From Syntrophorhabdus sp. PtaB.Bin047 (GTDB taxonomy: Bacteria; Desulfobacterota; Syntrophorhabdia; Syntrophorhabdales; Syntrophorhabdaceae): a stretch of DNA of 64,000 nucleotides. The DNA lies in the NCBI GenBank assembly GCA_002067235.1, contig MVQP01000006.1, forward strand, positions 70 to 64,069. The letters run 5' to 3'. Position numbers and translations under genes: made by a program. Below, piece after piece: positions 28,110 through 64,000 of this stretch. The notes below the pieces were generated by a model. That model was not told the DNA's origin. It made no database searches and saw only the letters and a list, made by a program, of their open reading frames with translations. Position 1 is the first letter of the stretch. Each line of letters opens with the position of its first letter.

Positions 28110-28451
28110 ATGAACGAAGCACAATTCAAGACACTTCGTGAACTCTCCGGTGAAGGAGAGATCTCCCAGCGTGATCTTTCGAGACGAATAGGGCTGAGCC
28201 TTGGAAGCGTGAATTTCATTCTCAAAGAGCTCATAAAGAAAGGATTCGTGAAGGCGCAGCGTTTCAAGAATTCCAACAACAAAGCCGCCTACATCTATGT
28301 CCTTACGCCTCAGGGTATAAACGAGCGCGTGAAACAAACGCAATACTTCCTGCAGTTGAAGATGAAGGAATACGAACGGTTGCAGAAGGAGATCGAGGAG
28401 CTCAGGATCGAGAACACCATCAATGAATTGAAGGAGCCGAATGGTGAATAA
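28110..28451 (+). CDS. MarR-type winged-helix regulator (EPS-locus-associated type)
   Basis: 'ISQRDLSRRIGLSLGSVNFILKELIKKGFV' wHTH followed by a C-terminal coiled coil. Start at ATG 28110 ('MNEAQF'). Confidence 0.75.
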   Translation: MNEAQFKTLRELSGEGEISQRDLSRRIGLSLGSVNFILKELIKKGFVKAQRFKNSNNKAAYIYVLTPQGINERVKQTQYFLQLKMKEYERLQKEIEELRIENTINELKEPNGE

Positions 28452-29523
28452 CTCAAAAAATGTCCCCTATTACGCATTTGGAGAGGGTTCTCTAGCCGGA
28501 CTTGGCACCTTGCTGGCGGAACGGGCAAAGAGTCGTGGCGGTCGCTGTATCTTCTTTGTGGACCATTTCTTTCAGGGACGATCCCTGGTTCGGGACCTGC
28601 CTGTTGAGGAGGGCGATACTCTATTCTTTGTCTCCACCGTGGATGAGCCGACAACGGACGGGATCAATGAATACTACTCCGCCATAACGGCGAAGTACCA
28701 CGAGCTCCCCTCGGCTATCGTCGGCATCGGCGGGGGCTGTACCCTGGACACGGCAAAGGCGGTCTCAAACCTCCTGACAAACGGGGGGAAGGCCGAAGAC
28801 TATCAGGGGTGGGACCTCGTGAAGGTACCGGGTGTTTACAAGGTCGGTGTGCCCACCATTTCGGGCACCGGCGCGGAATCTTCGCGGACGTGTGTACTGA
28901 CCAATCGACGGAAGAACCTCAAACTCGGCATGAATAGCGAACACACCATCTTTGATCAGTTGATACTCGATCCCGCTCTACCCGTCACGGTGCCCAGGAA
29001 CCAGTACTTCTATACAGGAATGGACACATATATCCATTGCATTGAGTCGTTGAACGGAAGTCACCGGCATGCCGTTGGCGACTCCTTCTCGCGCGAGGCC
29101 CTGGCCCTGAGCAGGGAGGTCTTCGGTTCCGCGGACATGCAGAACAGAGCGAACGTGGAGAGGCTCATGGTAGCCTCGTATCTGGGAGGATGTGCCATAG
29201 CCAACAGCTATGTCGGCGTCGTTCATCCGCTTTCGGCAGGTCTGAGCACGGTCTTGAAGATCCATCACGGTCTTGCCAACTGTCTTGTCATGAACGTGAT
29301 GGAGGATTTCTACCCAAAGGAGACGGATGAGTTCCATCGTTACATGGAGGATCAGGGTGTTGACCTGCCGTCAGGTGTGACGGGAAATCTGGACGATGAC
29401 GGTTTCGCCAGACTCTACGAATCCACCATCATCCATGAGAAGCCGCTTGTCAATGCCCTGGGTGCGGAATACAGGGCCATCCTGACGCGGGAAAGAGCGT
29501 CGGAGATCTTCAGGAGGATATGA
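28441..29523 (+). CDS. iron-containing alcohol dehydrogenase family protein
   Basis: 360 aa. 'IVGIGGGCTLDTAK', 'GTGAESS', 'HCIES...H' and 'HPLS' fit the Fe-ADH fold. Confidence 0.75.
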   Translation: MVNNSKNVPYYAFGEGSLAGLGTLLAERAKSRGGRCIFFVDHFFQGRSLVRDLPVEEGDTLFFVSTVDEPTTDGINEYYSAITAKYHELPSAIVGIGGGCTLDTAKAVSNLLTNGGKAEDYQGWDLVKVPGVYKVGVPTISGTGAESSRTCVLTNRRKNLKLGMNSEHTIFDQLILDPALPVTVPRNQYFYTGMDTYIHCIESLNGSHRHAVGDSFSREALALSREVFGSADMQNRANVERLMVASYLGGCAIANSYVGVVHPLSAGLSTVLKIHHGLANCLVMNVMEDFYPKETDEFHRYMEDQGVDLPSGVTGNLDDDGFARLYESTIIHEKPLVNALGAEYRAILTRERASEIFRRI

Positions 29524-30707
29524 CGGGACCCACGGATTTCAGGATCAGGTTCAGCGGCAAGGGGCACGACTATACCCCCGAAGAGATCGATACCGTCGTG
29601 CATGCAATGAAAACGGCGGAACCCTACACGCAGGGCGAGTATCAGAAGGCCTTCGAAGAAAAATTCGGCACCTATATCGGAAGCAGGCATTCCTTTGCGG
29701 TCAACAGCGCCACCTCCGGCCTGGAGCTTGCAGCTCAGTTGTGTCAGTTCCGGCCGGGAGATGAGGTCATCATACCGTCGCACACGTTTACCTCCAGTGC
29801 TTATCCCTTCGCGAAGAAAGGCGCCAGGATAATCTGGGCGGATATTGACCTCAAGACGAGGGTCGTCACCGCCGAGACGATAAGGCCTAGGATCAGCGAG
29901 AGGACACGGGCCATCGTGGTCGTTCATCTCTATGGCTATGCCGCCGGTATGCGGGAGATGATCGATCTTGCCCGTCAGAGGGGTATCCTGGTCATCGAGG
30001 ATGTGGCGCAGTCCATGGGTACTTCCGTGGATGGCAGGAAATCGGGTACATTCGGGGATATAGGCGTCTTTTCCCTTCATTCCCACAAGAATATAACGAC
30101 CTTGGGGGAGGGTGGTGTCATCACCGTGAAGGATCCCGGGATGGCAGCCGTGATTCCCATGCTGCGGCACAACGGGCATTGTCCCTTCCCCTGCGAGAGG
30201 GAACACTACTGGATACCGGCGATGGGCAATGTGGACCTTCCCGTTCTGAACGGCAGCGAGTTGATGCCGAACAACTTCTGCATGGGTGAGGTGGAATGCG
30301 CTCTGGGCGCGAAGCTGCTTGACAGACTCGACCGGATGAACCTGGAGAAGCGCACGAGGGCCCTCTATTTTATCGACGCCCTGAAAGAGTACGACAGCAT
30401 CGAGTTCCACCGGGTGGAAACCGACCGGCACAACTATCACCTTCTGGCAGCGCGTGTCACCAACGGGAGGCGCGACGAGATAATGAGCTTCATGGCCTAC
30501 GAAAAGAAGATCCAGTGTGTTGTCCAGTACTATCCGTTGAACCGGTATCCGTTGTACCGGAAGCTGGGATTCGGTGAGGCCGCGTGTCCCAACGCGGACA
30601 CGTTCTTCGATAATATGATCTCTTTCCCTTTTCATCACTGGATGCCGGATGACGATTTCGAGTATCTGCTGGAATCCACGAAGGAAGCCCTGGAAAGGTT
30701 CTCCTGA
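29520..30707 (+). CDS. DegT/DnrJ/EryC1/StrS-family PLP-dependent sugar aminotransferase
   Basis: 'EDVAQSMG' and 'FSLHSHKNITTLGEGG' (Schiff-base Lys). ATGA overlap with the Fe-ADH gene. Confidence 0.85.
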   Translation: MTGPTDFRIRFSGKGHDYTPEEIDTVVHAMKTAEPYTQGEYQKAFEEKFGTYIGSRHSFAVNSATSGLELAAQLCQFRPGDEVIIPSHTFTSSAYPFAKKGARIIWADIDLKTRVVTAETIRPRISERTRAIVVVHLYGYAAGMREMIDLARQRGILVIEDVAQSMGTSVDGRKSGTFGDIGVFSLHSHKNITTLGEGGVITVKDPGMAAVIPMLRHNGHCPFPCEREHYWIPAMGNVDLPVLNGSELMPNNFCMGEVECALGAKLLDRLDRMNLEKRTRALYFIDALKEYDSIEFHRVETDRHNYHLLAARVTNGRRDEIMSFMAYEKKIQCVVQYYPLNRYPLYRKLGFGEAACPNADTFFDNMISFPFHHWMPDDDFEYLLESTKEALERFS

Positions 30708-32362
30708 TGCCGGAAGCCCTCAAAGACATGGGAGACGGTCACGGACCGGCGGTAGTCATTCCCGCCGTGAAGAAGAACGTCGCTTTTCCCGACGACCTGG
30801 TGAAGAAGCTCTCGGGGACGAGTCTGATACAACGCGCCATCGATATCGCTGCCCAGGCCTTCTCTGTTTCGCGAACGTATGTATTGACGGACTCGGAAGA
30901 GATAGACCTGATATGCAGACGTAACAACGTCACCTGCCTGTATGACAGGGCCCTGCGGCTCGACCCGGAGAACTATCTGGGTAGTATCAGGCCGTATATC
31001 CTGCCCCTGGCCGTGGACTGGCAGGATATAATGATACTGTCGCCATACGTCCCTCTCATCAAGGCAAATGAACTGCGCGAGGCGTATCGCCACTACCACG
31101 ACCGGGGGGCGGAGCTTCTGGTGCCTGTAAACCGCGATCTGCATCGCCCGTACGCGCCGTGGAAGAGGGAAGTGCACCATATGCTGTATGATGTGGCCGA
31201 GACGGAACTGGCCACCGAACTGAGGGCCTTCAGCATATTCAAGAGCCGTCTCCTCGAGGAGCCCGCCGGATACCTGGTGGAGCCCGTGGCGTACCAGCTC
31301 AGCGGACGGATGATCGAGGTACGAGGTTACGAGGACTGGTGGTTGTGCGAGAAGCTCCTTAACCGCCGGAGGATAGTCTTTCGCGTAATAGGGCACAGGA
31401 CGGTGGGCATGGGTCATATCTACCGCTGTCTGGCGTTGGCCCACGAGATCACAGACCACGAGATACGTTTTGTCTGTGATACCCGCAGCAGCGTGGCCGC
31501 CAACAAGCTGGCAGGTTACGACTACTGGCTGGGGGTCTATGAGCCTGATGAGATCGAGGATGCCATCATCTCGCTGGAACCCGACCTCCTCATCAATGAC
31601 ATGCTGGACACCTCCCGGGAGTACGTTCGCCGCCTGAGAGACAGAGGCATTCGTGTTGTCAATCTGGAGGACCTCGGCACCGGAGCCGTGGAGGCCGATC
31701 TGACGATCAATGACCTTTTCGATGAGCCGTTGTTCGAAGGGGGGAACATTCTCTGGGGAAACTACTGGTTCTTCGTCCGTGATGAGTTCTCGGATGCCAG
31801 GCCGCACAGGTTCAAGAACAAGGTCTCAAGGCTCCTGATTGCCTTTGGCGGCACCGATCCGGGCGACCTCACGCGAAAGATCCTCCGTGCCGTTCTGCCT
31901 TACTGCGCGCAGCAGGAAGTGGCGGTTGACGTGGTCACGGGCGAGGGTTACGGGCACATCGAGGAACTGGAGCGCGAGGTTGCCGGCATCAGGGACGCTG
32001 AAGTGACCTACACGTACGCGACGGGGATCATCTCCGACATAATGGAAAGGACAGAGATCGCCATCTGTTCGAACGGGCGGACGGTCTACGAGCTTGCCCA
32101 CATGAACATCCCCGCCATCGTCCTTTCCCACAACAACAGGGAGAAGACACACTGTTTTGCCTGCGATGAGAACGGGTTCGTTCCGCAGGGGATGTATGAA
32201 GGTGAAAGAAGCGACAGGGCCGTGAGCGATGCGTTGAAGAGGCTGGTCGAGGATACCGGTCACAGGCGCAGGCTTTTCGCGAAGCAGCAGCACATCAACT
32301 TTGCACGCAATAAAGGGAAGGTGGTCCGGCGCATCCTTTCCCTGCTCAGGGGCGCGCCGTGA
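30707..32362 (+). CDS. fusion protein: N-terminal cytidylyltransferase-like domain + C-terminal PseG/SpsG-like (GT28-C-type nucleotide-sugar hydrolase) domain
   Basis: 551 aa. N-terminus 'AVVIPAVKKNVAFPDDLVKKLSGTSLIQRAI' is NeuA/PseF-like but divergent. C-terminal half 'IVFRVIGHRTVGMGHIYRCLALA...LLIAFGGTDP...ICSNGRTVYELAHMNIPAIVL' is PseG-like. Confidence 0.65.
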   Translation: MPEALKDMGDGHGPAVVIPAVKKNVAFPDDLVKKLSGTSLIQRAIDIAAQAFSVSRTYVLTDSEEIDLICRRNNVTCLYDRALRLDPENYLGSIRPYILPLAVDWQDIMILSPYVPLIKANELREAYRHYHDRGAELLVPVNRDLHRPYAPWKREVHHMLYDVAETELATELRAFSIFKSRLLEEPAGYLVEPVAYQLSGRMIEVRGYEDWWLCEKLLNRRRIVFRVIGHRTVGMGHIYRCLALAHEITDHEIRFVCDTRSSVAANKLAGYDYWLGVYEPDEIEDAIISLEPDLLINDMLDTSREYVRRLRDRGIRVVNLEDLGTGAVEADLTINDLFDEPLFEGGNILWGNYWFFVRDEFSDARPHRFKNKVSRLLIAFGGTDPGDLTRKILRAVLPYCAQQEVAVDVVTGEGYGHIEELEREVAGIRDAEVTYTYATGIISDIMERTEIAICSNGRTVYELAHMNIPAIVLSHNNREKTHCFACDENGFVPQGMYEGERSDRAVSDALKRLVEDTGHRRRLFAKQQHINFARNKGKVVRRILSLLRGAP

Positions 32363-33075
32363 CGGGGGCGGTCGTCGCCGTAGTGCAGGCACGGATGGAC
32401 GCGTCGCGCCTGCCGAACAAGATGATGCTGTGGCTGAAGGGCATGCCCGTTGTCGAGTGGGTCTATCGAAGGGTGACGATGTCCGGAATGGTCGACCACG
32501 TTGTCTTTGCGTTGCCTGATACAAGGTCGAACGACGTCCTGGAGGATTTTCTCACAGGCGTCGGCGCCAGTGTATTTCGGGGCAGCGAAACGGATGTGCT
32601 GGGTCGTTTCTATCAGGCCGCGCGCGTCCACGAGGCGGAACAGGTCGTTCGGGTCTGTGCGGACAACCCCTTCGTCTGCGGTTCGGAAATAGACAGGTTG
32701 ATAGAATTTTTCCGGGAAAACGACTATGACTACGCGTACAACCATATACCGCGCAATAACAGGTATCCCGACGGATTGGGCGCCGAAATAGTGCGTTTTC
32801 CGTTGTTGCGTCGGCTCGAAGAGGCTGCGGTTGAGGCGTCACACCGTGAACACATCTTCAACTACATATGGGATAACCGGGACAATTTTCGCATAGGCAC
32901 CTGTGACCCCCTTGATGAAAAGATCGCGTATCCCCACCTGAAACTGGACCTCGATACCCCCGATGATTACGCGTGGTTGTTGAGGCTGCAGGTGAGGCCC
33001 GACATGTCCGCCCGCGAGGTGGTATCGGCGGCACTTTCATACCCCAGGAGCAAGGAAGATGAAAAGACTGGCTGA
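32359..33075 (+). CDS. SpsF/FlmC-type cytidylyltransferase-family protein
   Basis: 238 aa with GTG start. 'VVQARMDASRLPNKMM' and 'VCADNPF' motifs as in SpsF-like proteins. Confidence 0.75.
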   Translation: MTGAVVAVVQARMDASRLPNKMMLWLKGMPVVEWVYRRVTMSGMVDHVVFALPDTRSNDVLEDFLTGVGASVFRGSETDVLGRFYQAARVHEAEQVVRVCADNPFVCGSEIDRLIEFFRENDYDYAYNHIPRNNRYPDGLGAEIVRFPLLRRLEEAAVEASHREHIFNYIWDNRDNFRIGTCDPLDEKIAYPHLKLDLDTPDDYAWLLRLQVRPDMSAREVVSAALSYPRSKEDEKTG

Positions 33076-34123
33076 ACTGATAAGGGAGTACCGTCCCGAG
33101 CAGTATCTTACCCGGAGGCCGTATGTGATCGCTGAGGCGGGTGTCAACCACGGGTGCGATATGGATATCGCCGCCCGAATGATAGAGGAGGCAAAGGAGG
33201 GCGGGGCCGACGCAATAAAATTCCAGACCTACAAGGCGGAGACGATAGCGTCGAAAGACTCCCCGTCCTACTGGGACCTGAGCAAGGAACCGACGGACAG
33301 CCAGTATGAGCTCTTCAAGAAATACGACAGGTTCTGGAAGAACGAATTCGAAGCTTTGAAGGACCGCTGCGACAGGGTGGGGATCGAGTTTCTGAGCACC
33401 CCTTTCGATGTCGAGTCGGCCGCCTTTCTGAACGACCTCATGGATGTCTTCAAGATATCGTCGTCGGATCTCAATAATAAACCCTTTGTCGAGTACCTGT
33501 GCGGTTTCGGAAAGCCGATACTCCTGTCCACGGGCGCGTCCTACATGTGGGAGGTGGAACAGTCGGTGAGCTGGATACAGGACAGGGGCAATCCCCTGGC
33601 CTTGCTCCACTGCGTGCTCAACTATCCCACGGATGACGCCAACGCGAACCTGGCCATGATCCTGGAATTGAGGCGCGTTTTCCCCTGCAACGCGATCGGC
33701 TATTCGGACCACACGCTGCCGGGTGAGATGAGGTGCCTGGAGACAGCCACGCTTCTGGGGGCTTCGGTGCTGGAAAAGCACTTTACCTACGACAAGACAC
33801 TTCCCGGGAACGATCATTATCACGCGATGGACAAGGAGGATCTCAGGCGTTTCAACGCACGGATGGAGAGCCTGTTCCTGATGCTGGGGCAGAGGTTGAA
33901 GCAGCCGCTCGCAAGCGAGGACAGTGCACGGAGGAATGCCAGGCGAAGCCTTGTGGCGGCGCGGACGATCCCGGCCGGGAAGACACTGGAGCAGGGGGAC
34001 CTGACGTGGAAGCGGCCAGGTCACGGCATCGACCCGAGGGATTACGACAGGGTGATCGGGAGAAAGGCCAGGGAGGAACTGGCGGAAGACACCGTTCTTC
34101 AGTGGAGCATGCTCGATGCCTGA
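33059..34123 (+). CDS. NeuB-family nonulosonic acid synthase (NeuB/PseI/LegI/SpsE-like) with SAF domain
   Basis: 'VIAEAGVNHGCDMDIAARMIEEAKEGGADAIKFQTY', 'GYSDHT', C-terminal SAF 'RRSLVAARTIPAGKTL'. Confidence 0.88.
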   Translation: MKRLAELIREYRPEQYLTRRPYVIAEAGVNHGCDMDIAARMIEEAKEGGADAIKFQTYKAETIASKDSPSYWDLSKEPTDSQYELFKKYDRFWKNEFEALKDRCDRVGIEFLSTPFDVESAAFLNDLMDVFKISSSDLNNKPFVEYLCGFGKPILLSTGASYMWEVEQSVSWIQDRGNPLALLHCVLNYPTDDANANLAMILELRRVFPCNAIGYSDHTLPGEMRCLETATLLGASVLEKHFTYDKTLPGNDHYHAMDKEDLRRFNARMESLFLMLGQRLKQPLASEDSARRNARRSLVAARTIPAGKTLEQGDLTWKRPGHGIDPRDYDRVIGRKAREELAEDTVLQWSMLDA

Positions 34124-35414: not shown

Positions 35415-35487
35415 GGCGCGACGCATTCCCTCCGACCGGTCCACGGAGGAATGCGGTGAGGGCGTGTGGCCCGTGGGCCAGGGAACC

Positions 35488-50671: not shown

Positions 50672-50672
50672 C

Positions 50673-51653: not shown

Positions 51654-51654
51654 G

Positions 51655-52683: not shown

Positions 52684-52702
52684 GGCAAAGGGGAAGGACG
52701 TC

Positions 52703-53422: not shown

Positions 53423-53468
53423 AAAAGGCGCCGTACATCTATCGTGGCGGAAGGGGAGGGGACCTGTC

Positions 53469-54437: not shown

Positions 54438-54464
54438 GGCAGGACGGCACGGAAAGACTGGAGG

Positions 54465-55079
54465 GTGTGGATGCAACATCTGAGAGAAATGTACAGCAGT
54501 TCAAAGAATGCGTCTGAGTATTTTCGGTCTTACTTTTCGCACATAAGTGACCTCCTGATGGATCTTGATACCGGGGCCATCAACAGCGTCATTGAGTGCT
54601 TCCTGAAGGCGAGAGAGGAGAGGAAGACGATATTCTTTGCGGGTAACGGGGGCAGCGCCGCGACGGCATCCCATTTCGCGCAGGACCTCGGAGAGGTGGG
54701 AAGAAAGGCCGGGAAACGCGGTTTCAAAACGCTGAGCCTCACCGAGAATGTCTCCCTTCTCAGCGCCGTGGGAAACGACTACGGGTTTGAGCAGGTCTTC
54801 ACCGTTCCTCTCGTCGAATTGTTCAACGCAGGGGACGTTCTCGTCGCGATATCGGCAAGCGGCAACAGCCCGAATGTCATCAAAGCCATCGAATTCGCCC
54901 GCGACGCCGGGGGTGAGACGGTGGGTCTCGTCGGATTTGACGGGGGCAGGATGAAAGACATGTGCGATCATGTTATCCACGTGCGGACGGATGTCGGCTC
55001 CTACGGTCCCGTGGAGGATGTGCACATGGCGATGGACCACCTGATCACGTCTTATCTTATCCTGAGGCTTTCCGAATAG
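54465..55079 (+). CDS. SIS-domain sugar-phosphate isomerase (GmhA-like)
   Basis: 'IFFAGNGGSAATASHFAQDL' and 'ISASGNSPNV' as in phosphoheptose isomerases. Confidence 0.8.
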   Translation: MWMQHLREMYSSSKNASEYFRSYFSHISDLLMDLDTGAINSVIECFLKAREERKTIFFAGNGGSAATASHFAQDLGEVGRKAGKRGFKTLSLTENVSLLSAVGNDYGFEQVFTVPLVELFNAGDVLVAISASGNSPNVIKAIEFARDAGGETVGLVGFDGGRMKDMCDHVIHVRTDVGSYGPVEDVHMAMDHLITSYLILRLSE

Positions 55080-55138
55080 ATGAAGCGTCCAGAGAGGACC
55101 GGGTCCGATCAGGTGGGGCGCTCAAGGAGGCATCGCCG

Positions 55139-56242: not shown

Positions 56243-58080
56243 TCCGTCTTTGCCACGCGGCGGTATCGTCCGCAACGCTCAAAAGGAAGAGGTTCTTCAG
56301 GGAAACGGGCGATTCCGGCCAATGGCTGTACCTGGGACGGGACTACCTGTGCTTCAGAAATTGGCGGCAGGCCCTGGGGCCTTCATGGGAGCACAGGGAA
56401 TACAGCAACGAACTGCAGTCCCTGGCCCATAAGTGGCGCGTGCCCTACCTTGACTGGGTCACCGGGCTTGGAAGGAAGAACAACACTCTGGCATGGTGGA
56501 CCTCGTCCGTCTCGGAGCGGAACACCTACGGCAGTTCCCTCTATCATTCGATCTGCTACCTCAGCATCGGGCTTTCCGTGCTGGCCTCGGAGAGACCTCC
56601 CTCGCTGGTTGTGATCGAGAGCTCCGCCGTGCTTCATGCTCTTGCGGGGCATCCAGATCTTGCGGGAAGGGTGCATGTGCTGGATTCGCGAACCAACCGT
56701 CTGAAGGAGATGTGCCGATGGATAGCGTCGTGGGCCCGGTACTTCATCAGGACGGCGGGGTCAGTCTGGAACGCATACGTGACCAGGAGCCCGGGCGCAA
56801 CCCCGGAGGAGGAGAAAGACCGGCCAAGGGTGCTTATCCACACCTGCATAGACGATAGCTACTTCGGAGAGGACGGCGTTGCGAGGGACCGCTACTTCGG
56901 GACATTGGCCCGCGAGCTTCGCCACCGCGGTTACGACGTTGTGGTCCTGCCGTGGATATACAGCCTGCGGCGTTCCCAGCGCGAGGCCTTCCGATGGTTC
57001 CGGCAACATCCCGGGGAGTACCTCCTGCCTGAGGATTTTTGCTCCCCCCGGGACTACGTCTGGGCCGCGGGGATCGTTATGCGACAGAGCTTCATGCTGA
57101 AGGGACAGCACGTTTTTCTCGGAATGGATATCACGGGGCTTGTTCGGGAGGCCTGCCGGCAGCAGGGAAGCAGGACGGAGACCGCGAGGTTCGTTCTTTA
57201 CTACAGGTTGGTGCGGCACCTCCTGAACCGCCGGGTGCGGTTGGACCGCTTCATAGACATGCATGAGAACATGGTCACCGAAAAACCCCAAATAATGGCT
57301 TTTCGCGAGTTTATGCCCTGGGTCACGCTTGTCGGTTTCCAGCACTACAGCGAGAGCATTCCCCTCATGCTGTGCCTGTTCACCACGCCGGAGGAGGCCG
57401 AATTTGCTCCTCACCCGGACTACATCGTATGCAATTCGCCGCACATGCTTTCCAGGATGGAGCAGATGGGTTTTCCCCGGGATAAGCTCAGGGCAGGTCC
57501 GTCACTGCGTTACCAGCATCTGATTGGCAAACCGGCGTCCGCCGCCCCCGAAAGTAAAAAGGTCCTGGTGGTCCTGCCCCTGGGCAGGGACTATACGGCT
57601 GAGATGATGGACCTTCTTCTGGAGGGTTTCAGGGAACCGGAGGGTCTGGAGTTCTGGTTGAAACCTCATCCCATGCTTGACGAGAAGGAACTACGGACGA
57701 TCACCAGGGGTATTCCGGAGCATTTCAGCGTGGTAGAGGGCAATATGGACCAGTGGCTTGCGCGGGCCGCATGCGTCGTGGTCTCCGGCAGTACCTCTTC
57801 CTTTGAGGCGGCGCTTGCCGGCATACCTGTCGTGGTGGTGGGCAGGAGGACGGATCTTGATCTCAACCCGCTCAGCTGGTTCTCCGAGTTTGCGCCGGCC
57901 GTACACTCACCGGCGGAGCTTCGGGACGAGGTGTTGCATTCTCTGAGCCTGACCGGGAAGCAGATGGGCGCTCTGAGCGCCTGGGCCGAAAAGATGCGTG
58001 AACGCGCCATCTCGGCGATCACGGACGAGACCGTGGGGGCCTTTATGGAACAGCGGGGTGAAAAGAGGCGTGCATCATGA
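56239..58080 (+). CDS. large hypothetical protein with a GT-B-like C-terminal half (candidate glycosyl/ulosonic-acid transferase)
   Basis: 613 aa with ATGA overlap to the DHQS-like gene. The C-terminal 'KKVLVVLPLG...ACVVVSGSTSSFEAALAGIPVVVVG' pattern resembles the nucleotide-sugar-binding Rossmann half of GT-B enzymes. Confidence 0.45.
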   Translation: MIRLCHAAVSSATLKRKRFFRETGDSGQWLYLGRDYLCFRNWRQALGPSWEHREYSNELQSLAHKWRVPYLDWVTGLGRKNNTLAWWTSSVSERNTYGSSLYHSICYLSIGLSVLASERPPSLVVIESSAVLHALAGHPDLAGRVHVLDSRTNRLKEMCRWIASWARYFIRTAGSVWNAYVTRSPGATPEEEKDRPRVLIHTCIDDSYFGEDGVARDRYFGTLARELRHRGYDVVVLPWIYSLRRSQREAFRWFRQHPGEYLLPEDFCSPRDYVWAAGIVMRQSFMLKGQHVFLGMDITGLVREACRQQGSRTETARFVLYYRLVRHLLNRRVRLDRFIDMHENMVTEKPQIMAFREFMPWVTLVGFQHYSESIPLMLCLFTTPEEAEFAPHPDYIVCNSPHMLSRMEQMGFPRDKLRAGPSLRYQHLIGKPASAAPESKKVLVVLPLGRDYTAEMMDLLLEGFREPEGLEFWLKPHPMLDEKELRTITRGIPEHFSVVEGNMDQWLARAACVVVSGSTSSFEAALAGIPVVVVGRRTDLDLNPLSWFSEFAPAVHSPAELRDEVLHSLSLTGKQMGALSAWAEKMRERAISAITDETVGAFMEQRGEKRRAS

Positions 58081-58108
58081 GTGACCTCGGGGATAAGGAA
58101 GAGGTAGA

Positions 58109-59014
58109 GTGATCTTTCAGGTATTGCGCTTCGTCAGTCGGGCATCGGGAAAGATATCCAGCGTAGCGAACGAACTCTCGTCAAGGTTTGCTCCCGGGAG
58201 TGTTCAGGAGGACCTTGTTCTTGATTCGACCTCTTACGACATGGTCAACGCCACCGACGAGGCCTATTACGCGGAGCAATACTGGAGTGTTTTTTCCCGG
58301 TTTCTCACGGAAATCCCGGATACTTCCTCCTGCCTGGACCTGGGATGCGGTCAGGGACGTTTCAGCTTGAAACTGGCAGAGAGGTTTCCGCGGGGCACGG
58401 TCCTGGCCTGTGACATTTCAGAGAAAGCCATTGCAGCGGCCCGGATAAACGCGAGGAACGCGGGATTGAAGAACGTTGACTTCGAGGTCTCCTCGATCGA
58501 GGATGCCCTGGGGCTGCGTACCGGAGGAAGTCGGGAGTTGATAATGATGACGGAGGTATCGTTCTACTATCCCGGCTGGCGGGAACAGATGCCCGGGGTC
58601 ATGAGGGTTCTCAAGCCGGGAGGATTGCTGGTTGCCTCCTTCAGAAGCCAGTACTTCGATGCCCTGTGTTCCGCTGACCGCAGGTACTGGGACGATGTGC
58701 CTGTGCTTCTCGGCGACCGAAAGGGCCGGATATTCAACTCTCCCAAGGAGTTCAGCTGGCAGAGATCGGAGGAGCTCCGTTCATTTTTGACCCGTGATTG
58801 TGGGCTCAACCTGCTCGTCATGTTCGGAATCGGTGTCTGTTCCGGCATCCCCGGAGATCCGCACGAACATATCGTTCGCCCCTCTGAGCTGAACGGGCGC
58901 GAACGCGAGCACCTGATGAGACTGGAGATGGGGTTGGGCGAGAGCGTGCCCGATGCGGGGCGTTACATTCTTGCCGTGGCCCGGAAAGGAAACCAAAAAA
59001 GGAAATCGTCATGA
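58109..59014 (+). CDS. class I SAM-dependent methyltransferase
   Basis: GTG start. 'CLDLGCGQGRF' motif I. Confidence 0.8.
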   Translation: MIFQVLRFVSRASGKISSVANELSSRFAPGSVQEDLVLDSTSYDMVNATDEAYYAEQYWSVFSRFLTEIPDTSSCLDLGCGQGRFSLKLAERFPRGTVLACDISEKAIAAARINARNAGLKNVDFEVSSIEDALGLRTGGSRELIMMTEVSFYYPGWREQMPGVMRVLKPGGLLVASFRSQYFDALCSADRRYWDDVPVLLGDRKGRIFNSPKEFSWQRSEELRSFLTRDCGLNLLVMFGIGVCSGIPGDPHEHIVRPSELNGREREHLMRLEMGLGESVPDAGRYILAVARKGNQKRKSS

Positions 59015-60123
59015 CAATACCTGTTTCAAGACCCTCCATAGGTCAGGAGGAACTCAAGGAAGTTGGAAAGGTGTTTGCCACGGGCTGGCTGGGACTGGGA
59101 TCCACGGTGTTCGAGTTCGAGAAGGAATTGGAGGGCTATCTGGGGGCGAGGCACGTGCTTGCCGTAAACAGCGGCACGACGGCACTGCATATCGCGCTGG
59201 ATGCCCTGGGGGTGGGAAGGGGCGATGAGGTCATCGTGCCTTCTCTGACATTCTGCGCCAGTGTTCAGGCCATCACCTCCCTCGGGGCAGTGCCGGTGTT
59301 CTGCGAGGTCAGTCCCGAGGACCTCAATATCAACGTGGCCGATGTGGAGAGAAGGATCACGCGCAGGACGAAGGCGATCATGCCCGTTCATTATTGCGGG
59401 CAGGCCTGCGATATGGACCGTCTGCTGGAAATGGGCAGGGCAGGGAACATTTCCATCGTGGAGGACGCCGCTCACGCCTTCGGGTCTTCCTGGAAGGGCA
59501 GGAGACTGGGGAGTTTCGGAGACGTGACATGCTTCAGCTTCGACCCCATCAAGAATCTGACCTGCGGGGAAGGAGGGGCTGTCGTCCTGTCAGATGATGG
59601 TGTCGCCGAGCTCGTTCGCACGAAAAGGATCCTGGGTATCGACAAGGACACGTGGCACCGCTACAGGAACGAGCGGGCATGGTTCTACGAGGTGACAACA
59701 CAGGGCTACCGCTATCACATGAGCAACATCAACGCGGCCATAGGCCTTGCCCAGTTGAAGAAATTCGAGTCCTTCGTGGAGAAGAAGAAGGACGTGGTCC
59801 GCAGGTACAACGAGGCGTTTCGGCACATAGAGGGCCTCAGGGTACTCAACTGGAACCTGGACGATACGGCCCCCTTCACCTACATCCTCAGGGTGTTGAA
59901 TGACAGGAGGGAGGAGCTCATCGCGTTCCTAGCACAGAGGGACATCGGTACCGGGATCCATTACATCCCCAATCACTTGCAGCCGTTCTTCAAGGAGTAT
60001 TCCACACCGCTTCCCGCCACGGAGGAGATCGGAGAGCAGATACTGACCCTCCCGCTGTTTTATGATATGACGGAGGAGCAGATCCGGTCGGTCATCCGGT
60101 CGGTCAGCGAGTTTTTCCTCTGA
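59011..60123 (+). CDS. DegT/DnrJ/EryC1/StrS-family sugar aminotransferase (second copy)
   Basis: 'VEDAAHAFGS' and 'FSFDPIKNLTCGEGG'. ATGA overlap with the methyltransferase gene. Confidence 0.88.
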   Translation: MTIPVSRPSIGQEELKEVGKVFATGWLGLGSTVFEFEKELEGYLGARHVLAVNSGTTALHIALDALGVGRGDEVIVPSLTFCASVQAITSLGAVPVFCEVSPEDLNINVADVERRITRRTKAIMPVHYCGQACDMDRLLEMGRAGNISIVEDAAHAFGSSWKGRRLGSFGDVTCFSFDPIKNLTCGEGGAVVLSDDGVAELVRTKRILGIDKDTWHRYRNERAWFYEVTTQGYRYHMSNINAAIGLAQLKKFESFVEKKKDVVRRYNEAFRHIEGLRVLNWNLDDTAPFTYILRVLNDRREELIAFLAQRDIGTGIHYIPNHLQPFFKEYSTPLPATEEIGEQILTLPLFYDMTEEQIRSVIRSVSEFFL

Positions 60124-60181
60124 GAGGATACGGTATGACCGGGGTCGCGGTACTGCCCCGGGGAGATAGAGGATAATCTTC

Positions 60182-61123
60182 ATGGGTCTGACAGAAAAGA
60201 CGGGCAATCCCCTTGTGAGCGTTGTGATACCGGCCTATAACGCGGGCCCGTTCATCGAGGAGACCGTTGGTTCCGTCCTCGACCAAACGTATACGGATAT
60301 CGAGGTGATCGTGTGCGATGACGGCTCTACGGACGACACCGTTGAAAAGATCCGTGCGATGATGGAAAAGGACTCGCGTGTCAGGCTGGTAACACAGGAC
60401 CGCGGCGGCGTCTCGCGCGCCAGGAACCTTGCGATCGGCAGCGCGCGCGGGGACTTCATTGCCCTCCTGGATCATGACGACGTGTGGAGCGCGACGAAGC
60501 TGGAGAAACAGATGCCGTTGTTCAATGATGAGAAAGTGGGGCTCGCGTACTGCGATGCCTTTCACTGGCTGAACGGCAGGAAAGACACCGACCGGGTCTT
60601 TGCCAGGGTCAAGCCCTTCAGGGGCAGGGTGTTCGGGCAGCTTCTGGAGAATTTCTTCATCCTCTGCCAGTCGGCCGTCATACGCAGGCGCCTGCTCGAC
60701 GGGATGGAGTATGTATTTGACCCCGCGATGGAAATGTGCGAAGAATATGACCTGTTCCTTCGGCTGGCACTGGTCACCGATTTTGACTACGTGGACGAGC
60801 CGCTGGTGAGGTGGAGGATCCACGGTAGTAACGACACCTTCCTGCGGCCGGAGTTGAAGATCGTTGATATGAACAGGATAATCGGAAAGCTGCTTCACTC
60901 CAACGCGGACCTGGCCGGGGAGTATGGGAGACAGGTGGAAAGCTTCAGGAAGAGCATACGGTACTATCAAGCCGGCCTGTACTGGAAGGACGGAAGGAAG
61001 ATGAAGGCCTTCGCCGGGTTTTTCTCCCTGGCCGGATACAGGATACAGAGCATCGTCCTTGCTCTCCTGTCTTTGTGCATAAGCTACGACACCTACGTGT
61101 CGCTTCGCTATGGCAGAAAATAA
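60182..61123 (+). CDS. family 2 glycosyltransferase
   Basis: 'VSVVIPAYNAGPFIEETVGSVLDQTY', 'VCDDGSTDDT', 'LDHDD'. Confidence 0.88.
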   Translation: MGLTEKTGNPLVSVVIPAYNAGPFIEETVGSVLDQTYTDIEVIVCDDGSTDDTVEKIRAMMEKDSRVRLVTQDRGGVSRARNLAIGSARGDFIALLDHDDVWSATKLEKQMPLFNDEKVGLAYCDAFHWLNGRKDTDRVFARVKPFRGRVFGQLLENFFILCQSAVIRRRLLDGMEYVFDPAMEMCEEYDLFLRLALVTDFDYVDEPLVRWRIHGSNDTFLRPELKIVDMNRIIGKLLHSNADLAGEYGRQVESFRKSIRYYQAGLYWKDGRKMKAFAGFFSLAGYRIQSIVLALLSLCISYDTYVSLRYGRK

Positions 61124-61140
61124 CGATATGGTGCGGGGCA

Positions 61141-62634
61141 ATGAAAAACATTTCGAACATCATCTCCTTATCGAGAGCGTACCTGAATGAGAACTCCGTG
61201 TATCTCTGCCTTCTGTCCACGGTGTGTCTGTGCGCCCTGTATTTCTTTCTCAGGTTCCAGTTCGGTCTGACCTGGGACGTCCTGGTGGTCCTGTATGCCT
61301 CCGTGGGATACCTCATCATTCACCTCTTTCTGAGTCTCATCGGTGATGTGAGGTCGGTGAAGTACCTTGTCAGGAACAAGCTGGACCTCGCGTTCCTCCT
61401 TTTCTTCCTGCACAACGCCGTGTTTGTTCCCCTGACCTTCTACCGGTATGGGCGGCTGGAGGGCCTCTACGCCGCGAAAAACTACCTCGTCCCCCTCGCG
61501 GTGTATTTCGTCGTCGTCTATTTCCTGAGGCACAGGGACGCGTCGAGGGTCATCGGTTGGGTTCTCCTCTGCAGTGTCCTCGTATCGGGGATCTACGTTG
61601 CTGAGATGGCAAGCGTCCGGTACGCTCCCCTCGAGGTGAAGGCCCCCGTAGAGGATGCCTTTGGGGTCTTCAAGTATACACGTGCCATGGACCTGTACGC
61701 GAAGGAGAAGCAAGCGGAATGCCGCGGTGTTACGAAATCGTGGACAAAGAGCGACAGGAGTCTTTACATACGACTTCCGGGGCCGGCGGGTCACAGCAAT
61801 GCCACGGCATTCGTGATAGCGATCGGAACGGTGCTCGCCTTCGCCGCGGTCGTCTTCGGACCCGCCACATGGCACAGGGGAATTGGCCTTTTCCTCTGCG
61901 CGATAGGCCTCTTCTGGGGGTGTTCACGAACGAACATGATCGGCGCCGGTCTGGCCATCCTTGCCCTCCTTGGCCTCGGGTTGTGGACGGGAAATGTGAG
62001 GAGACGGGACGCCCTGTTGCTCGTTGTGGCGGTCCCCTCAGTGATACTGCTGCTGGTGCTCTTCCAGGTGATAGACTGGAAGGCCTACCAGCAGATATTC
62101 AATCTCAAACAGACGTACTACACCTTGACGGCGACCATCGACAAGGAGACGGTACGCGAACTGGTCGTGCTCAAGGGGTCGAACCCCGCATCATTTGTCT
62201 GGGGTTCAGGCATCGCCCCGATCCTCTCCGACACCTACAGTTCGGGGTTGTATCTTGGACAGACCATAGCCAGCGACGACGCCTTTTACCTCCAGGTGCT
62301 GAGCCAGTACGGAATAGTCTGCGTGGCAATGTACATTGGGCTGATGGTCATCGGATTGAAGGGGGCCATCGGGTCCTTCTACAGGAATGACCCGGAATAT
62401 GTCAGGAAATACGAATATGTCCCCTTCGGCCTGATTGGCCTCATAGTGCTTGGGATGATCAACATATTCCATGGGGCCTCCCTTATCAAGCCGCACGTTT
62501 CCATGATATTCTACGTCTCGATAGGGTGCATGTCCGTCATCCTGTCGCGCAGAGGTTCCGAGGATGCCGAACGCGAGGCGCTCGATGCAGGTCGGACCGG
62601 GGTCCGGGCAAGGCTTCTGAGGGTCGATCCCTAG
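61141..62634 (+). CDS. polytopic membrane protein, O-antigen polymerase/ligase (Wzy_C-like) family
   Basis: About 10-12 TM segments with one larger loop containing 'RLPGPAGHSNATAF'. Start at ATG 61141. Confidence 0.6.
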   Translation: MKNISNIISLSRAYLNENSVYLCLLSTVCLCALYFFLRFQFGLTWDVLVVLYASVGYLIIHLFLSLIGDVRSVKYLVRNKLDLAFLLFFLHNAVFVPLTFYRYGRLEGLYAAKNYLVPLAVYFVVVYFLRHRDASRVIGWVLLCSVLVSGIYVAEMASVRYAPLEVKAPVEDAFGVFKYTRAMDLYAKEKQAECRGVTKSWTKSDRSLYIRLPGPAGHSNATAFVIAIGTVLAFAAVVFGPATWHRGIGLFLCAIGLFWGCSRTNMIGAGLAILALLGLGLWTGNVRRRDALLLVVAVPSVILLLVLFQVIDWKAYQQIFNLKQTYYTLTATIDKETVRELVVLKGSNPASFVWGSGIAPILSDTYSSGLYLGQTIASDDAFYLQVLSQYGIVCVAMYIGLMVIGLKGAIGSFYRNDPEYVRKYEYVPFGLIGLIVLGMINIFHGASLIKPHVSMIFYVSIGCMSVILSRRGSEDAEREALDAGRTGVRARLLRVDP

Positions 62635-62712
62635 CGTGGATAAAGGTCCCGTGCCCTGAGAAAGACATCCCGTAAATGGTTCGTTCTTTCAGGTGTCGCC
62701 CTTGCGGGGTTT

Positions 62713-63315
62713 TTGTGCACGCTTCTTCTTGCCCTCAACATCGCGGGCTGGCTCAAAGGGAATGATGTGCCCCTGCCCTCCCGCGCCATCCTTGTACTTT
62801 CCGGTCCGCCGACACGGTCGTTTTACGCAGCTGACCTCTACAGACAGGGATTCGCGGGCGAGGTCTACGTTACCCGCCCGGTCAGGGAGCCGTTTGCCAG
62901 GATGCTCGACGAGGCGGGGATACCCTATCCCAGGACCGAGCAACTGCACGTCGCCGTTCTGCTGAAGATGGGTGTTCCGGCGACGCGCATCCATGTCGTC
63001 GGGGAGCCCTGTCTCAGTACGGCCGACGAGGCGGAGGTGGCGCGGCACATATTTTCCGGCAGGGACTGCAGCATCCTCGTCGTCACATCGCCATACCACG
63101 TGAGGAGATCGGTCATGATCTTCGGAGACGTGATGAAGGGTTGCAGATTTACCGTTCTGGGCACTCCCTATGAGAGCTTTCCGGGCAAATGGTGGAAAGA
63201 CCAGGACGCGGCGAGAAATGTCCTGCTTGAGGTGTCCAAGATCATATTCTACAGGTTGGGCGGAAGGTTCGGGGCGGAAAACGACAGGGGCGGTACAAGA
63301 GAACGGGATGGTTAA
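62713..63315 (+). CDS. DUF218 (YdcF/ElyC/SanA-like) protein
   Basis: 'AILVLSG', 'STADEA' and 'ILVVTSPYHVRRS' are typical of DUF218. The annotated TTG start truncates an in-frame N-terminal TM helix; see the finding on a possible CTG start at 62656. Confidence 0.75.
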   Translation: MCTLLLALNIAGWLKGNDVPLPSRAILVLSGPPTRSFYAADLYRQGFAGEVYVTRPVREPFARMLDEAGIPYPRTEQLHVAVLLKMGVPATRIHVVGEPCLSTADEAEVARHIFSGRDCSILVVTSPYHVRRSVMIFGDVMKGCRFTVLGTPYESFPGKWWKDQDAARNVLLEVSKIIFYRLGGRFGAENDRGGTRERDG

Positions 63316-64000
63316 CAGCAGAGGACGCCATCGGACAGGATTTGCTCTCTGGGTCCTGTTCTTCTCTTTCTCGGTCTTTGCCGCGATCTCTTTCCAGAAG
63401 GTGTTGCTGCCCCTTCTGCCAGGGCTCCACGGCGGTCACGGATTGATCGGTGGAGGAGATTCCATCCTCTTTCACAGGATAGCGGCGGACCTTGCCGAGG
63501 CCATCCGTCTCCATGGATGGGGCCGTTTGACTCTGACCCCTTCGCAGGGTGTCACGGGCAACGTCTCCCTCCTTGCCGTCCTTTACATTGTCTTTGGTCC
63601 CGATCCATCCGTGATGGTCCCCATCAACGCCGCCGTACATGCCACCTCGGGTCTCCTCATCTTCCTCATAGCGCGCCTCCTGTGGCGTGACAGGCTCGGC
63701 ACCTTGTCGGGGATCATCGCGGCATCCCTTTTCGTTATCTTTCCCTCGGCGCTCAACTGGTACGGCCAAATCCACAAGGACGGGTTTTCGATCCTCGGCA
63801 TGCTCCTTATCTTCTATTCCTGGATACAGGTGGGCGGGTCGTCGCCAGGGTTGAAAAGAGCCCTCTGGATGGTCTTTGGCAACACCCTGGGGCTGATCCT
63901 CGTCGTGTTCGTGCGCCCTTACAACGTCATGCTTCTGCTGCTGTCAGGGTCTGTTCTGTGCTCCGTTCTCTTTGTCTATTACATCGTTACCCGGAAAGGA
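63308..64000 (+). CDS. polytopic membrane protein, 3'-truncated by the window end (possible GT-C-type glycosyltransferase)
   Basis: ORF read by hand from ATG 63308 with an 8-nt overlap with the DUF218 stop. No stop codon occurs up to 64000. It has several hydrophobic segments and is absent from the ORF track because it runs off the end. Confidence 0.55.
   Translation, partial: MVNSRGRHRTGFALWVLFFSFSVFAAISFQKVLLPLLPGLHGGHGLIGGGDSILFHRIAADLAEAIRLHGWGRLTLTPSQGVTGNVSLLAVLYIVFGPDPSVMVPINAAVHATSGLLIFLIARLLWRDRLGTLSGIIAASLFVIFPSALNWYGQIHKDGFSILGMLLIFYSWIQVGGSSPGLKRALWMVFGNTLGLILVVFVRPYNVMLLLLSGSVLCSVLFVYYIVTRKG

Follow-up and report, generated by a model that had tools for sequence, protein, structure and literature searches.

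A co-directional array of glycan genes occupies positions 28110-64000

We analyzed a 64,000-nucleotide stretch of DNA from Syntrophorhabdus sp. PtaB.Bin047 (contig MVQP01000006.1), hereafter the window, and followed a long run of glycan-synthesis genes that begins at position 28110 and reaches the end of the window at 64000. Gene positions rest on a six-frame list of open reading frames (ORFs) together with gene calls from public metagenome contigs, which match the window at 100% identity over 13.8, 21.8, and 16.7 kb. Between 28110 and 64000 we counted 33 genes, the last of which continues past the window edge, and 33/33 lie on the plus strand. This bears out a preliminary description of the same DNA, which had placed about 33 plus-strand genes here and had called them a glycan biosynthesis super-locus, a label that the gene content supports. 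Minus-strand genes inside the locus were rejected: the five longest antisense ORFs (345-433 aa) matched no Pfam family and were uncalled on every contig. With co-directionality well above chance, the locus is a known kind of object, namely a long co-directional surface-polysaccharide cluster.

Thirteen gene junctions overlap (by 8, 4, 1, 4, 17, 8, 11, 4, 4, 4, 4, 4, and 8 nt), close to the 14 or more counted previously, and two further junctions have a 1-nt spacer; the widest gaps measure 136, 99, and 78 nt. Scans for promoters and terminators returned one good promoter-like site only, 5' of the first gene (TTGACA-17-GATGAT with an extended TG, 27988-28016, plus strand), a match to the consensus only, with 10/12 matching positions and the top score of the region. 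Across the region scanned, promoter-like sites were no more numerous than expected from shuffled sequence, and terminator-like sites were not in excess. Translational coupling and a single operon, as proposed in the preliminary description, can only be inferred from such a picture.

The array opens with an exopolysaccharide (EPS)-associated MarR-family regulator (28110-28451, plus strand, as are all genes of the array; TIGR04176 127 bits, cutoff 88; Pfam MarR and HTH_24). A Wzx/MOP-family flippase lies at 46882-48411 (Polysacc_synt, Polysacc_synt_3, and MatE all above cutoff; ~12 hydrophobic segments). The last genes of the window encode a GT2 glycosyltransferase (60182-61123; Pfam Glycos_transf_2, 124 bits), a polytopic membrane protein with ~10 hydrophobic segments and large loops that is a candidate Wzy polymerase or O-antigen ligase (61141-62634), a DUF218 (YdcF/ElyC-type) protein (62713-63315; PF02698), and the first 231 codons (63308-64000) of a 969-aa fusion that ends at ~66217 in window-equivalent coordinates. 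The fusion joins a polytopic N-domain, with a weak DUF6541 match, to a MurJ-type flippase domain (MurJ 166 bits over residues 497-928). Pfam and NCBIfam scans found neither an initiating transferase nor a 4,6-dehydratase in 28110-64000. The preliminary description had already remarked on these absences, together with that of Wza, Wzc, and Wzz from the window, and domain scans agree with it; also present as described are the MarR-type gene, Wzx, GT2, two DegT aminotransferases, a carbamoyltransferase, two radical S-adenosylmethionine (SAM) enzymes (one SPASM, one B12-binding), and pmbA upstream.

The array continues beyond the window

A contig identical to the window (DRR358089_2170) runs on past 64000 with glycan genes on the same strand, in the order DUF218, 969-aa MurJ-type fusion, epimerase, GT4, FnlA/PseB-type 4,6-dehydratase, RmlD-like reductase, WecB-type 2-epimerase, GT4, and epimerase. 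A relative, represented by a 367 kb Joint Genome Institute (JGI) contig, shows 88.7% DNA identity in a shared 11.6 kb and keeps synteny from window gene 4 through gene 33 and onward. Further downstream in this relative we found a 205-aa Bac_transf phosphoglycosyltransferase (197 bits; ~+10 kb from the window end), a 615-aa WbpM/PglF-type dehydratase, a second WecB, a GT4, a methyltransferase, a PMT_2 GT-C protein, and a GT4-Bac_transf fusion (~+17 kb), the two Bac_transf positions being those of the relative only. Altogether, the downstream part holds four GT4 domains, one GT-C, two polyprenyl-phosphate sugar transferases, and two dehydratases, one FnlA/PseB-type and one WbpM/PglF-type. Because the identical contig and the relative carry the array at least 19 kb further, the locus measures at least 55 kb with ~48 genes; its length is a lower bound, as glycan genes in the relative continue to the end of the 21 kb examined. 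The earlier suspicion that missing functions lie past 64000 proved well founded: glycan genes, rather than unrelated ones, follow directly, with a 4,6-dehydratase and GT4s on the identical contig and Bac_transf, the WbpM-type dehydratase, and the GT-C in the relative.

By model scores, the dehydratase on the identical contig is of the inverting UDP-N-acetylglucosamine (UDP-GlcNAc) 4,6-dehydratase type (FnlA model 546 bits, cutoff 730; PseB model 331, cutoff 408). The RmlD-like reductase scored 95 bits (cutoff 224) and the WecB-type epimerase 222 bits (cutoff 210). Both downstream Epimerase_2 proteins pass the non-hydrolyzing wecB model, and only the second (L054 14715-15875) matched the NeuC model, at 82 bits against a cutoff of 236. 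The dehydratase-reductase-epimerase order matches the fnlABC plus GT4 pattern of O-antigen loci.

A comparison with related genomes, suggested in the preliminary description, found the array intact at ~89% identity in one relative, except for one tailoring-gene swap. This sole gene-content difference seen is the exchange of a hexapeptide acetyltransferase (49290-49874) for a 283-aa Methyltransf_21 (FkbM-type) protein, encoded between the aldolase and KdsB-like genes (L096 2743-3594; L098 17426-18277), and it looks like a strain-level switch of decoration. Contig DRR358088_119518 and contig CAYYKG010000002.1 of a metagenome-assembled genome (MAG) end at ~27463, inside pmbA at the 5' edge of the locus, and at ~49430, the acetyltransferase/aldolase junction. 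That independent assemblies break at these two points, the latter being the swap site, suggests strain heterogeneity there in the sampled populations.

Module A combines a NeuB-type synthase with tailoring genes

The genes at 28.4-46.9 kb, which we call module A, begin with a KdnB-like iron-type alcohol dehydrogenase (FeADH), a homolog of ulosonic-acid terminal oxidases (28444-29523; Pfam Fe-ADH). Its full-length Protein Data Bank (PDB) matches are 3RF7 (E = 1.5e-86) and 5K8C, the 3-deoxy-D-manno-octulosonate (Kdo) 8-oxidase KdnB (E = 2e-82), with the next FeADH at 5e-30. A lead of ~50 orders of magnitude over other FeADHs in the PDB identifies the product, by homology, as a putative KdnB-type metal-dependent ulosonate oxidase. 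The function of KdnB was described by Gattis et al. (2013), as cited in PMC5125639. DegT-family aminotransferase 1 (29520-30707; Pfam DegT 273 bits) overlaps the oxidase gene by 4 nt; it scored 218 bits with the PseC model (cutoff 423) and was below the LegC cutoff too. KdnA (5K8B) was only its 44th PDB match (E = 2e-24), a rank that does not support calling it a KdnA ortholog.

Next is a 551-aa fusion (30707-32362) of a weak nucleotidyltransferase N-domain (NTP_transf_3 24.9 bits, cutoff 27; CTP_transf_3 E = 0.018) and a PseG-like C-domain of the GT-B hydrolase type (TIGR03590 PseG 124.5 bits over residues 222-474, cutoff 153.6). It is followed by a cytidine monophosphate (CMP)-sugar synthetase of the CTP_transf_3 family (32359-33075; Pfam E = 8e-23; NCBIfam KdsB-subfamily matches weak), which is gene 5 of the array and was left unmatched by the PseF model. 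The preliminary description had listed three CTP_transf_3 proteins; those at 32359-33075 and 49892-50671 stand, and the N-terminus of 30707-32362 is sub-threshold. A NeuB-family nonulosonic acid synthase with an SAF domain lies at 33059-34123 (Pfam NeuB 238 bits) and is matched better by NeuB_NnaB (314.7 bits, cutoff 399.65) than by PseI (228 bits, cutoff 340). With the equivalog models all sub-threshold and their signals conflicting, we dropped pseudaminic (Pse), legionaminic (Leg), and neuraminic (Neu) acid as specific assignments.

An aminopeptidase-like protein with Pfam DUF4910, DUF2172, and HTH_47 matches is encoded at 34116-35414. In a Sulfuritalea-type locus (L099 1-1978), CTP_transf_3 and DUF4910/DUF2172/HTH_47 occur in a single 671-aa protein, which ties the DUF4910 protein functionally to CMP-sugar synthesis. 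That fusion is followed by radical SAM/SPASM, DegT, methyltransferases, carbamoyltransferase, and LIC12162, a gene set that recurs.

Four genes then form a putative acyl-transfer set: a MaoC dehydratase fused to a short-chain dehydrogenase/reductase (SDR) (35464-36966; Pfam and gene call); an FkbH-domain protein of the HAD-IIIC type, predicted to load a glyceryl unit onto a carrier protein (37066-38778; TIGR01686 267 bits, cutoff 147); a 76-aa acyl carrier protein (ACP)-like protein with a WDSLG motif (38768-38998; PP-binding E = 0.0033, 18.1 bits, cutoff 20.8), overlooked in the preliminary description; and an AAC(3)-type (Antibiotic_NAT) N-acyltransferase (38995-39777; Pfam 121 bits). Campylobacter jejuni makes di-O-methylglyceroyl pseudaminic acids. 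An FkbH-domain gene is present in the C. jejuni flagellar glycan locus (PMC7099621). The remaining tailoring genes, assigned from Pfam or NCBIfam matches, encode a radical SAM/SPASM enzyme (39798-41018), class-I SAM methyltransferase 1 (41050-41781), a NodU/CmcH-type O-carbamoyltransferase (43457-45247; Carbam_trans_N and Carbam_trans_C), and a B12-binding radical SAM enzyme, probably of the C-methyltransferase class (45384-46871). Four SAM methyltransferases had been reported for the locus; we found only three of class I, at 41050, 50673, and 58109.

Module B contains a widespread AroB-like/KdsB-like cassette

Module B (48.4-60.1 kb) begins with an HpcH/HpaI class-II pyruvate aldolase of the 2-keto-3-deoxy sugar-acid type (48446-49225; Pfam 134 bits; best PDB match YfaU, 2VWS, E = 8e-47). 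The acetyltransferase mentioned above is a hexapeptide-repeat protein by Pfam and NCBIfam, and the next gene encodes a KdsB/KpsU-like CMP-ulosonic acid synthetase (49892-50671). The synthetase passes NF009905 (272 bits, cutoff 255) and NF003952 (259 bits, cutoff 193), falls under the strict kdsB equivalogs TIGR00466 (141 vs 155) and NF003948 (173 vs 281), and has KpsU (1GQ9, E = 5.5e-39) as its best PDB match. It is followed by class-I SAM methyltransferase 2 (50673-51653), a GFO/IDH/MocA sugar oxidoreductase (51655-52683), a FabG-like SDR (52703-53422), a PGDH/PdxB-like D-2-hydroxyacid dehydrogenase (2-HADH; 53469-54437), and a GmhA-like SIS sugar-phosphate isomerase (54471-55079; gmhA model 117.5 bits, cutoff 209). 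Class-I SAM methyltransferase 3 (58109-59014; Pfam) and the ArnB/PseC-like DegT-family aminotransferase 2 (59011-60123; Pfam 392 bits; ArnB 315 and PseC 313 bits, PseC cutoff 423, both sub-threshold) complete the module.

At 55139-56242 lies a gene for an AroB-related protein of TIGR04425 (429.1 bits, cutoff 400), a putative cyclizing sugar-phosphate phospholyase. It does not reach the cutoff of the aroB equivalog TIGR01357 (261.2 bits, cutoff 305). Its PDB matches rank a dehydroquinate synthase (DHQS; 3CLH, 5e-47) first, then 2-deoxy-scyllo-inosose synthase (DOIS; 3e-32), then 2-epi-5-epi-valiolone synthase (EEVS; 2e-27). Aligned with Helicobacter pylori DHQS, the family keeps the presumed metal ligands and most presumed substrate-contact positions (residue roles as reportedly given by Carpenter et al. 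1998); the one change is an invariant His in place of a Lys of the E-x-x-K motif.

A search with a profile of AroB-like homologs yielded 41 loci from species-representative genomes. Our counts use the 32 loci with at least 13 kb of sequence, the close Syntrophorhabdus relative being excluded, and co-occurrence means the same strand and at most 8 kb from the AroB-like gene. Under this definition the AroB-like gene was accompanied by the SDR in 32/32 loci, the 2-HADH in 31/32, the GFO oxidoreductase in 29/32, the KdsB-like gene in 25/32, the SIS isomerase in 24/32 (25/32 anywhere in the locus), the HpcH aldolase in 21/32, methyltransferase 2 in 16/32, and DegT 2 in 10/32 (13/32 anywhere in the locus). 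Module A genes were found with the cassette in 0/32 loci. The SDR gene ends at most 60 nt before the AroB-like start in all 32, usually with a 4-nt overlap. Here and in close relatives, the SDR and AroB-like genes are separated by the 2-HADH and SIS genes, so the cassette has been rearranged in this lineage. The closest AroB-like locus is that of a MAG named uncultured Syntrophorhabdus sp., which shares 13 genes at 88-99% amino-acid identity and so puts the window in or close to this genus of the Thermodesulfobacteriota.

Cassette hosts include Syntrophales, Chlorobiaceae, Hydrosulfovibrio, Gemmatimonadota, Acidobacteriota, Bacteroidota, Chloroflexota, Patescibacteria, seven Leptospira species, and MAGs labeled Nitrososphaeria and Thermoplasmatales. 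The Leptospira cassette is adjoined by other glycan-synthesis genes (carbamoyltransferase, LIC12162-family, GT2). Four loci from a Nitrososphaeria-labeled MAG and Dehalococcoidia MAGs (L037, L038, L040, and L053) contain the aldolase, 2-HADH, SIS, SDR, AroB-like, and GFO genes, with no KdsB-like gene within ±10 kb. L037 and L038 gave identical tblastn identity values though labeled as an archaeon and a Dehalococcoidia bacterium, which may reflect a binning error or a recent transfer. Some AroB-like homologs (P0068, P0072, P0074) are fused to an inositol-monophosphatase domain (PF00459), and some homologs of the neighboring 613-aa protein (P0165, P0202) to an HAD phosphatase; these fusions hint at a phosphorylated sugar or cyclitol intermediate.

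In the literature searched, we found no functional study of LIC12162, of TIGR04425, TIGR04331, or TIGR04326, of a sugar phosphate phospholyase, or of dehydroquinate synthase in Leptospira rfb loci, and no publication on the cassette. We tentatively suggest, as a possibility that we would not yet call probable, that the cassette is an undescribed route to a CMP-activated acidic sugar, in which the AroB-like enzyme acts on a sugar-acid phosphate, either eliminating its phosphate or carbocyclizing it. This would give a Kdo-like unit, omega-deoxy-keto or carbocyclic ("carba"), which very diverse bacteria and some archaea would build into their surface glycans, several Leptospira O-antigens among them; here, the orphan GT-B protein encoded next to the cassette would serve as the dedicated transferase for this unit.

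Two orphan proteins are predicted to adopt a GT-B fold

The two orphan proteins are a 560-aa LIC12162-family transferase (41778-43460; TIGR04331 277.9 bits, cutoff 225; PF27859) and a 613-aa protein (56239-58080) whose start overlaps the AroB-like gene by 4 nt. The latter does not reach the TIGR04326 cutoff (79.4 bits, cutoff 250) and has faint GT4 and Capsule_synth matches. Sequence searches of the PDB with the 551-, 560-, and 613-aa proteins gave no match, so we turned to structure prediction for the 560- and 613-aa proteins, using alignments of 39 and 36 homologs built for the two as AlphaFold2 inputs. The 613-aa model had a predicted local distance difference test (pLDDT) score of 92 and a predicted template modeling (pTM) score of 0.92, and the LIC12162-family model a pLDDT of 89. 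Foldseek matched the former to NeuC/WecB, GT1 macrolide glycosyltransferases, BshA, and a capsule polymerase (E down to 7e-10), and the latter to SenB, MGD1, MurG, and a polysialyltransferase (E down to 3e-5), consistent with predicted GT-B folds in both.

LIC12162 and "surface carbohydrate biosynthesis" genes adjoin neuABC in a Herbaspirillum lipopolysaccharide (LPS) island (PMC6679464). Because the 613-aa gene overlaps the AroB-like gene and LIC12162 genes adjoin ulosonic-acid genes elsewhere, the 560- and 613-aa proteins are, on the strength of these models, good candidates for acidic-sugar transferases. The preliminary description had reported only one glycosyltransferase, which is right for textbook Pfam families in the window and wrong more broadly, since two unassigned proteins model as GT-B folds and further glycosyltransferases lie downstream; the "only one glycosyltransferase" count is an artifact of textbook families and the window edge. 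Its alternative suggestion, that unassigned large proteins supply missing functions, gains support from the two predicted GT-B folds. The small repeat unit that it proposed fares less well: with the downstream part included, the tally is ~seven GT-A/GT-B candidates, one GT-C, two flippase-type proteins, and two phosphoglycosyltransferase domains, for which a larger repeat unit, or a pair of glycans, is at least as good a fit.

A proposed route to a surface polysaccharide

Overall, we consider it probable that 28-64 kb is the first ~36 kb of an at least 55-kb, ~48-gene chromosomal surface-polysaccharide (O-antigen or exopolysaccharide) biosynthesis region that works in the modules outlined here. 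The glycan would be assembled on a polyprenyl-phosphate carrier, started by the Bac_transf phosphoglycosyltransferase ~10 kb past the window, and extended by GT2, GT4, and the two orphan GT-B-fold enzymes. Wzx or the MurJ-like protein would flip it, and the Wzy_C-like membrane protein would polymerize or ligate it. The window itself would chiefly encode two activated acidic sugars and the enzymes that tailor them.

In module A, the NeuB-type synthase and the CMP-transferase would yield a nonulosonic acid; the downstream FnlA/PseB-type dehydratase together with the PseG-like domain could supply its 6-deoxy precursor. A terminal CH2OH would be converted to CH2NH2, as in the synthesis of 8-amino-8-deoxy-Kdo (Kdo8N), by the KdnB-like oxidase and the aminotransferase whose gene overlaps that of the oxidase. 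N-acylation of an amino group with a glycerate-derived (glyceroyl-type) unit would fall to FkbH, the carrier protein, MaoC-SDR, and the AAC(3)-type transferase, and the methyltransferase, the carbamoyltransferase, and the two radical SAM enzymes would decorate the product further.

Module B would make a CMP-activated Kdo-like 2-ulosonic acid, or a carbocyclic analog, without a phosphoenolpyruvate (PEP)-dependent synthase. As a hypothetical order throughout, the SIS protein would isomerize a ketose phosphate to an aldose phosphate, the GFO enzyme would oxidize C1 to give an aldonate, the PdxB/PGDH-like 2-HADH would convert the aldonate to a 2-keto acid, the AroB-like enzyme would remove phosphate with or without ring closure, the SDR would reduce the ketone, and the KdsB-like enzyme would activate the product with CMP. 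The aldolase, methyltransferase, acetyltransferase, and DegT 2 could provide variable extension and tailoring, with the 613-aa GT-B protein as the likely transferase for this sugar. Past the window, in what would be module C, the FnlA/PseB-type dehydratase, the reductase, and the 2-epimerase would produce a 2-acetamido-6-deoxy-L-hexose.

Several observations weigh against this account. All pathway steps are drawn from homology. Only the ~89%-identical relative showed the initiating transferase, the identical contig having been examined to ~0.9 kb short of that position. Wzz, Wza, and Wzc were absent from the genes scanned over ~75 kb (window plus downstream part), and may sit elsewhere in the genome. 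The Wzy-like protein noted in the preliminary description does have ~10 membrane segments, and its Wzy_C match is sub-threshold (E = 0.006, 16.8 bits vs a cutoff of 31.7), so that it could equally be a ligase. The type of nonulosonic acid is not assignable because no equivalog model (PseC, PseG, PseI, NeuB, or FnlA/PseB) reaches its curated cutoff, and the locus has neither a PseH-type GNAT nor a hydrolyzing NeuC/LegG. Non-transferases such as 2-epimerases and PseG have the GT-B fold as well, so the orphan pair need not be glycosyltransferases. The cassette order here departs from the SDR-then-AroB-like adjacency of all 32 other loci, and the presence of two flippase-type proteins and of two phosphoglycosyltransferase domains may point to more than one glycan.

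This last point leads to a different explanation, that two or more independent glycan systems stand head to tail, for example an O-antigen next to an exopolysaccharide or a protein-glycosylation glycan. The locus has two flippase-type proteins, Wzx (46882) and the MurJ-type fusion (63308), and downstream the relative carries two phosphoglycosyltransferase domains plus a PMT_2/STT3-like GT-C. Modules A and B are independent elsewhere, as the lack of module A genes in 32 cassette loci attests, and LIC12162, carbamoyltransferase, radical SAM/SPASM, and methyltransferase genes recur elsewhere as a set of their own. However, gaps never exceed 136 nt, the strand does not switch, terminator-like sites are not in excess, the whole array is intact at ~89% identity in the relative bar the tailoring-gene swap, and the single dedicated regulator seen is at the 5' end. 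We regard tandem systems as conceivable but doubtful.

Our surface-polysaccharide reading also has to be set against a protein O-glycosylation island, modifying flagellin, pilin, or an S-layer with a modified nonulosonic acid as in Campylobacter, Clostridium, and Tannerella, and against a secondary-metabolite cluster at ~39-60 kb for an aminocyclitol or pseudo-oligosaccharide, as in aminoglycoside clusters. We judge the protein O-glycosylation island unlikely: although the window has a NeuB-type synthase with a CMP-transferase, the FkbH/carrier-protein set is shared with the C. jejuni flagellar glycosylation locus, and the downstream part has a PMT_2/STT3-like GT-C, the 64-kb window and the 19 kb beyond it yielded no gene for flagellin, Maf (PF01973), or an S-layer, and Wzx, the Wzy_C-like protein, Bac_transf, and the EPS-type MarR regulator are present; the Leptospira cassette, too, sits among other glycan-synthesis genes. 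The secondary-metabolite cluster is less likely still, to the point of being improbable. It could draw on the AroB-family enzyme with its inositol-monophosphatase-fused homologs, on both DegT proteins having Gln:scyllo-inositol and 2-deoxy-scyllo-inosose transaminases among their top PDB matches, on Antibiotic_NAT, the carbamoyltransferase, and the B12-binding and SPASM radical SAM enzymes in the window, and on a dehydrogenase and an ACP-borne side chain like those of aminoglycoside clusters. Yet these genes are set between Wzx, GT2, the Wzy-like protein, and the KdsB-like CMP-transferase, DOIS and EEVS are further from the AroB-like protein than true dehydroquinate synthases are, the cassette lies beside GT2 and DegT genes in many phyla and in glycan-gene surroundings in Leptospira, and resistance and export genes of the kind usual in antibiotic clusters are absent.

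Relation to known systems

As a surface-polysaccharide region, the locus resembles Wzx/Wzy O-antigen and EPS clusters, such as the long Leptospira rfb loci and the LPS island of Herbaspirillum seropedicae AU14040 (PMC6679464), in its co-directional array of sugar-precursor, tailoring, glycosyltransferase, flippase, and polymerase-like genes. Also shared are a downstream Bac_transf initiator, as seen in the relative, and the LIC12162-family and TIGR04326-like proteins beside ulosonic-acid genes. Unlike those clusters, it has no chain-length regulator or Wza/Wzc in view, its composition is native rather than atypical, it places two different CMP-acid-sugar modules in one array, and its host is an uncultured syntrophic anaerobe.

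Module A shares with Pse, Leg, and Neu pathways a NeuB-family synthase, CTP_transf_3, DegT, a PseG-like domain, and a nearby FnlA/PseB-type inverting 4,6-dehydratase. It differs in that pathway-specific models are all sub-threshold, PseH GNAT and hydrolyzing NeuC/LegG are missing, N-acylation is apparently ACP-dependent, and the KdnB-like oxidase has no canonical counterpart. Like the Shewanella Kdo8N system (KdnB plus KdnA), module A has a KdnB homolog, whose gene is followed here by a DegT aminotransferase gene with a 4-nt overlap and then by CMP-transferase genes; the aminotransferase, however, is not KdnA-specific, and the genes lie in a polysaccharide locus that includes NeuB instead of serving the LPS core.

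Module B, like the CMP-Kdo pathway and capsule KpsU, has a KdsB/KpsU-like synthetase above a subfamily cutoff and an SIS isomerase upstream of the acid-sugar-forming step. In contrast to CMP-Kdo synthesis, the locus carries a class-II pyruvate aldolase instead of KdsA (DAHP-synthase family), an AroB-like phosphate-eliminating/cyclizing enzyme instead of a KdsC-type HAD, three additional oxidoreductases, and an isomerase that is GmhA-like, not KdsD-like. The AroB-like protein has the fold and motifs of the DHQS/aminoDHQ synthase/DOIS/EEVS superfamily, but it belongs to the separate curated family TIGR04425, and its context is glycan rather than aromatic amino-acid or antibiotic synthesis.

The locus illustrates how elaborate the envelope glycans of uncultured syntrophic anaerobes can be, and the apparent shortage of glycosyltransferases and of an initiator, an artifact of window edge and annotation, advises caution in reading similar loci. 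Three leads emerge. The AroB-like/KdsB-like cassette, conserved from Leptospira to archaea, is without an assigned product in the literature searched; knowing which sugar it makes would close a gap in the serovar chemistry of Leptospira and in nucleotide-sugar biochemistry. A KdnB-type oxidase homolog occurs outside Shewanella, beside a NeuB synthase. Finally, the LIC12162 and TIGR04326-like families are, judging by the predicted structures, candidates for the poorly known ulosonic-acid transferases.

Composition and flanking genes

We compared 28-64 kb with 1-28 kb, as the preliminary description had recommended, and found the two regions alike: GC content was 0.568 in the locus vs 0.560 in the flank, GC at third codon positions (GC3) was 0.72 vs 0.73, and codon usage matched. 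Tetranucleotide frequencies of locus and flank correlated at r = 0.92, with within-region controls at 0.95-0.96. Since its composition matches the flank, the locus looks native. No tRNA was found in the window, and no transposase or integrase among the flanking genes scanned, which agrees with the earlier report of none at the 5' boundary. We rejected horizontal acquisition as unsupported on both grounds, and the caution previously exercised on this point was justified.

The 28 kb upstream is housekeeping DNA with genes on both strands, encoding a thiolase, acyl-CoA dehydrogenase, dihydroxy-acid dehydratase, MFS transporter, FAD oxidase, NAD kinase, GNAT, and PmbA, together with a RecN-like ATPase at 23763-25364, for which an exact look-up returned nothing, probably owing to a different start codon. 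Immediately upstream of the locus, between the GNAT gene and pmbA, an MNT/HepT-type toxin-antitoxin pair (25844-26510, plus strand) encodes a 109-aa NTP_transf_2 nucleotidyltransferase and a 114-aa HepT-like RNase with an 8-nt overlap. At the far end of the window (30-1538, minus strand), a 502-aa protein that bears no relation to the glycan locus joins an AAA/STAND-type NTPase to a bacterial SH3 domain at the C-terminus.

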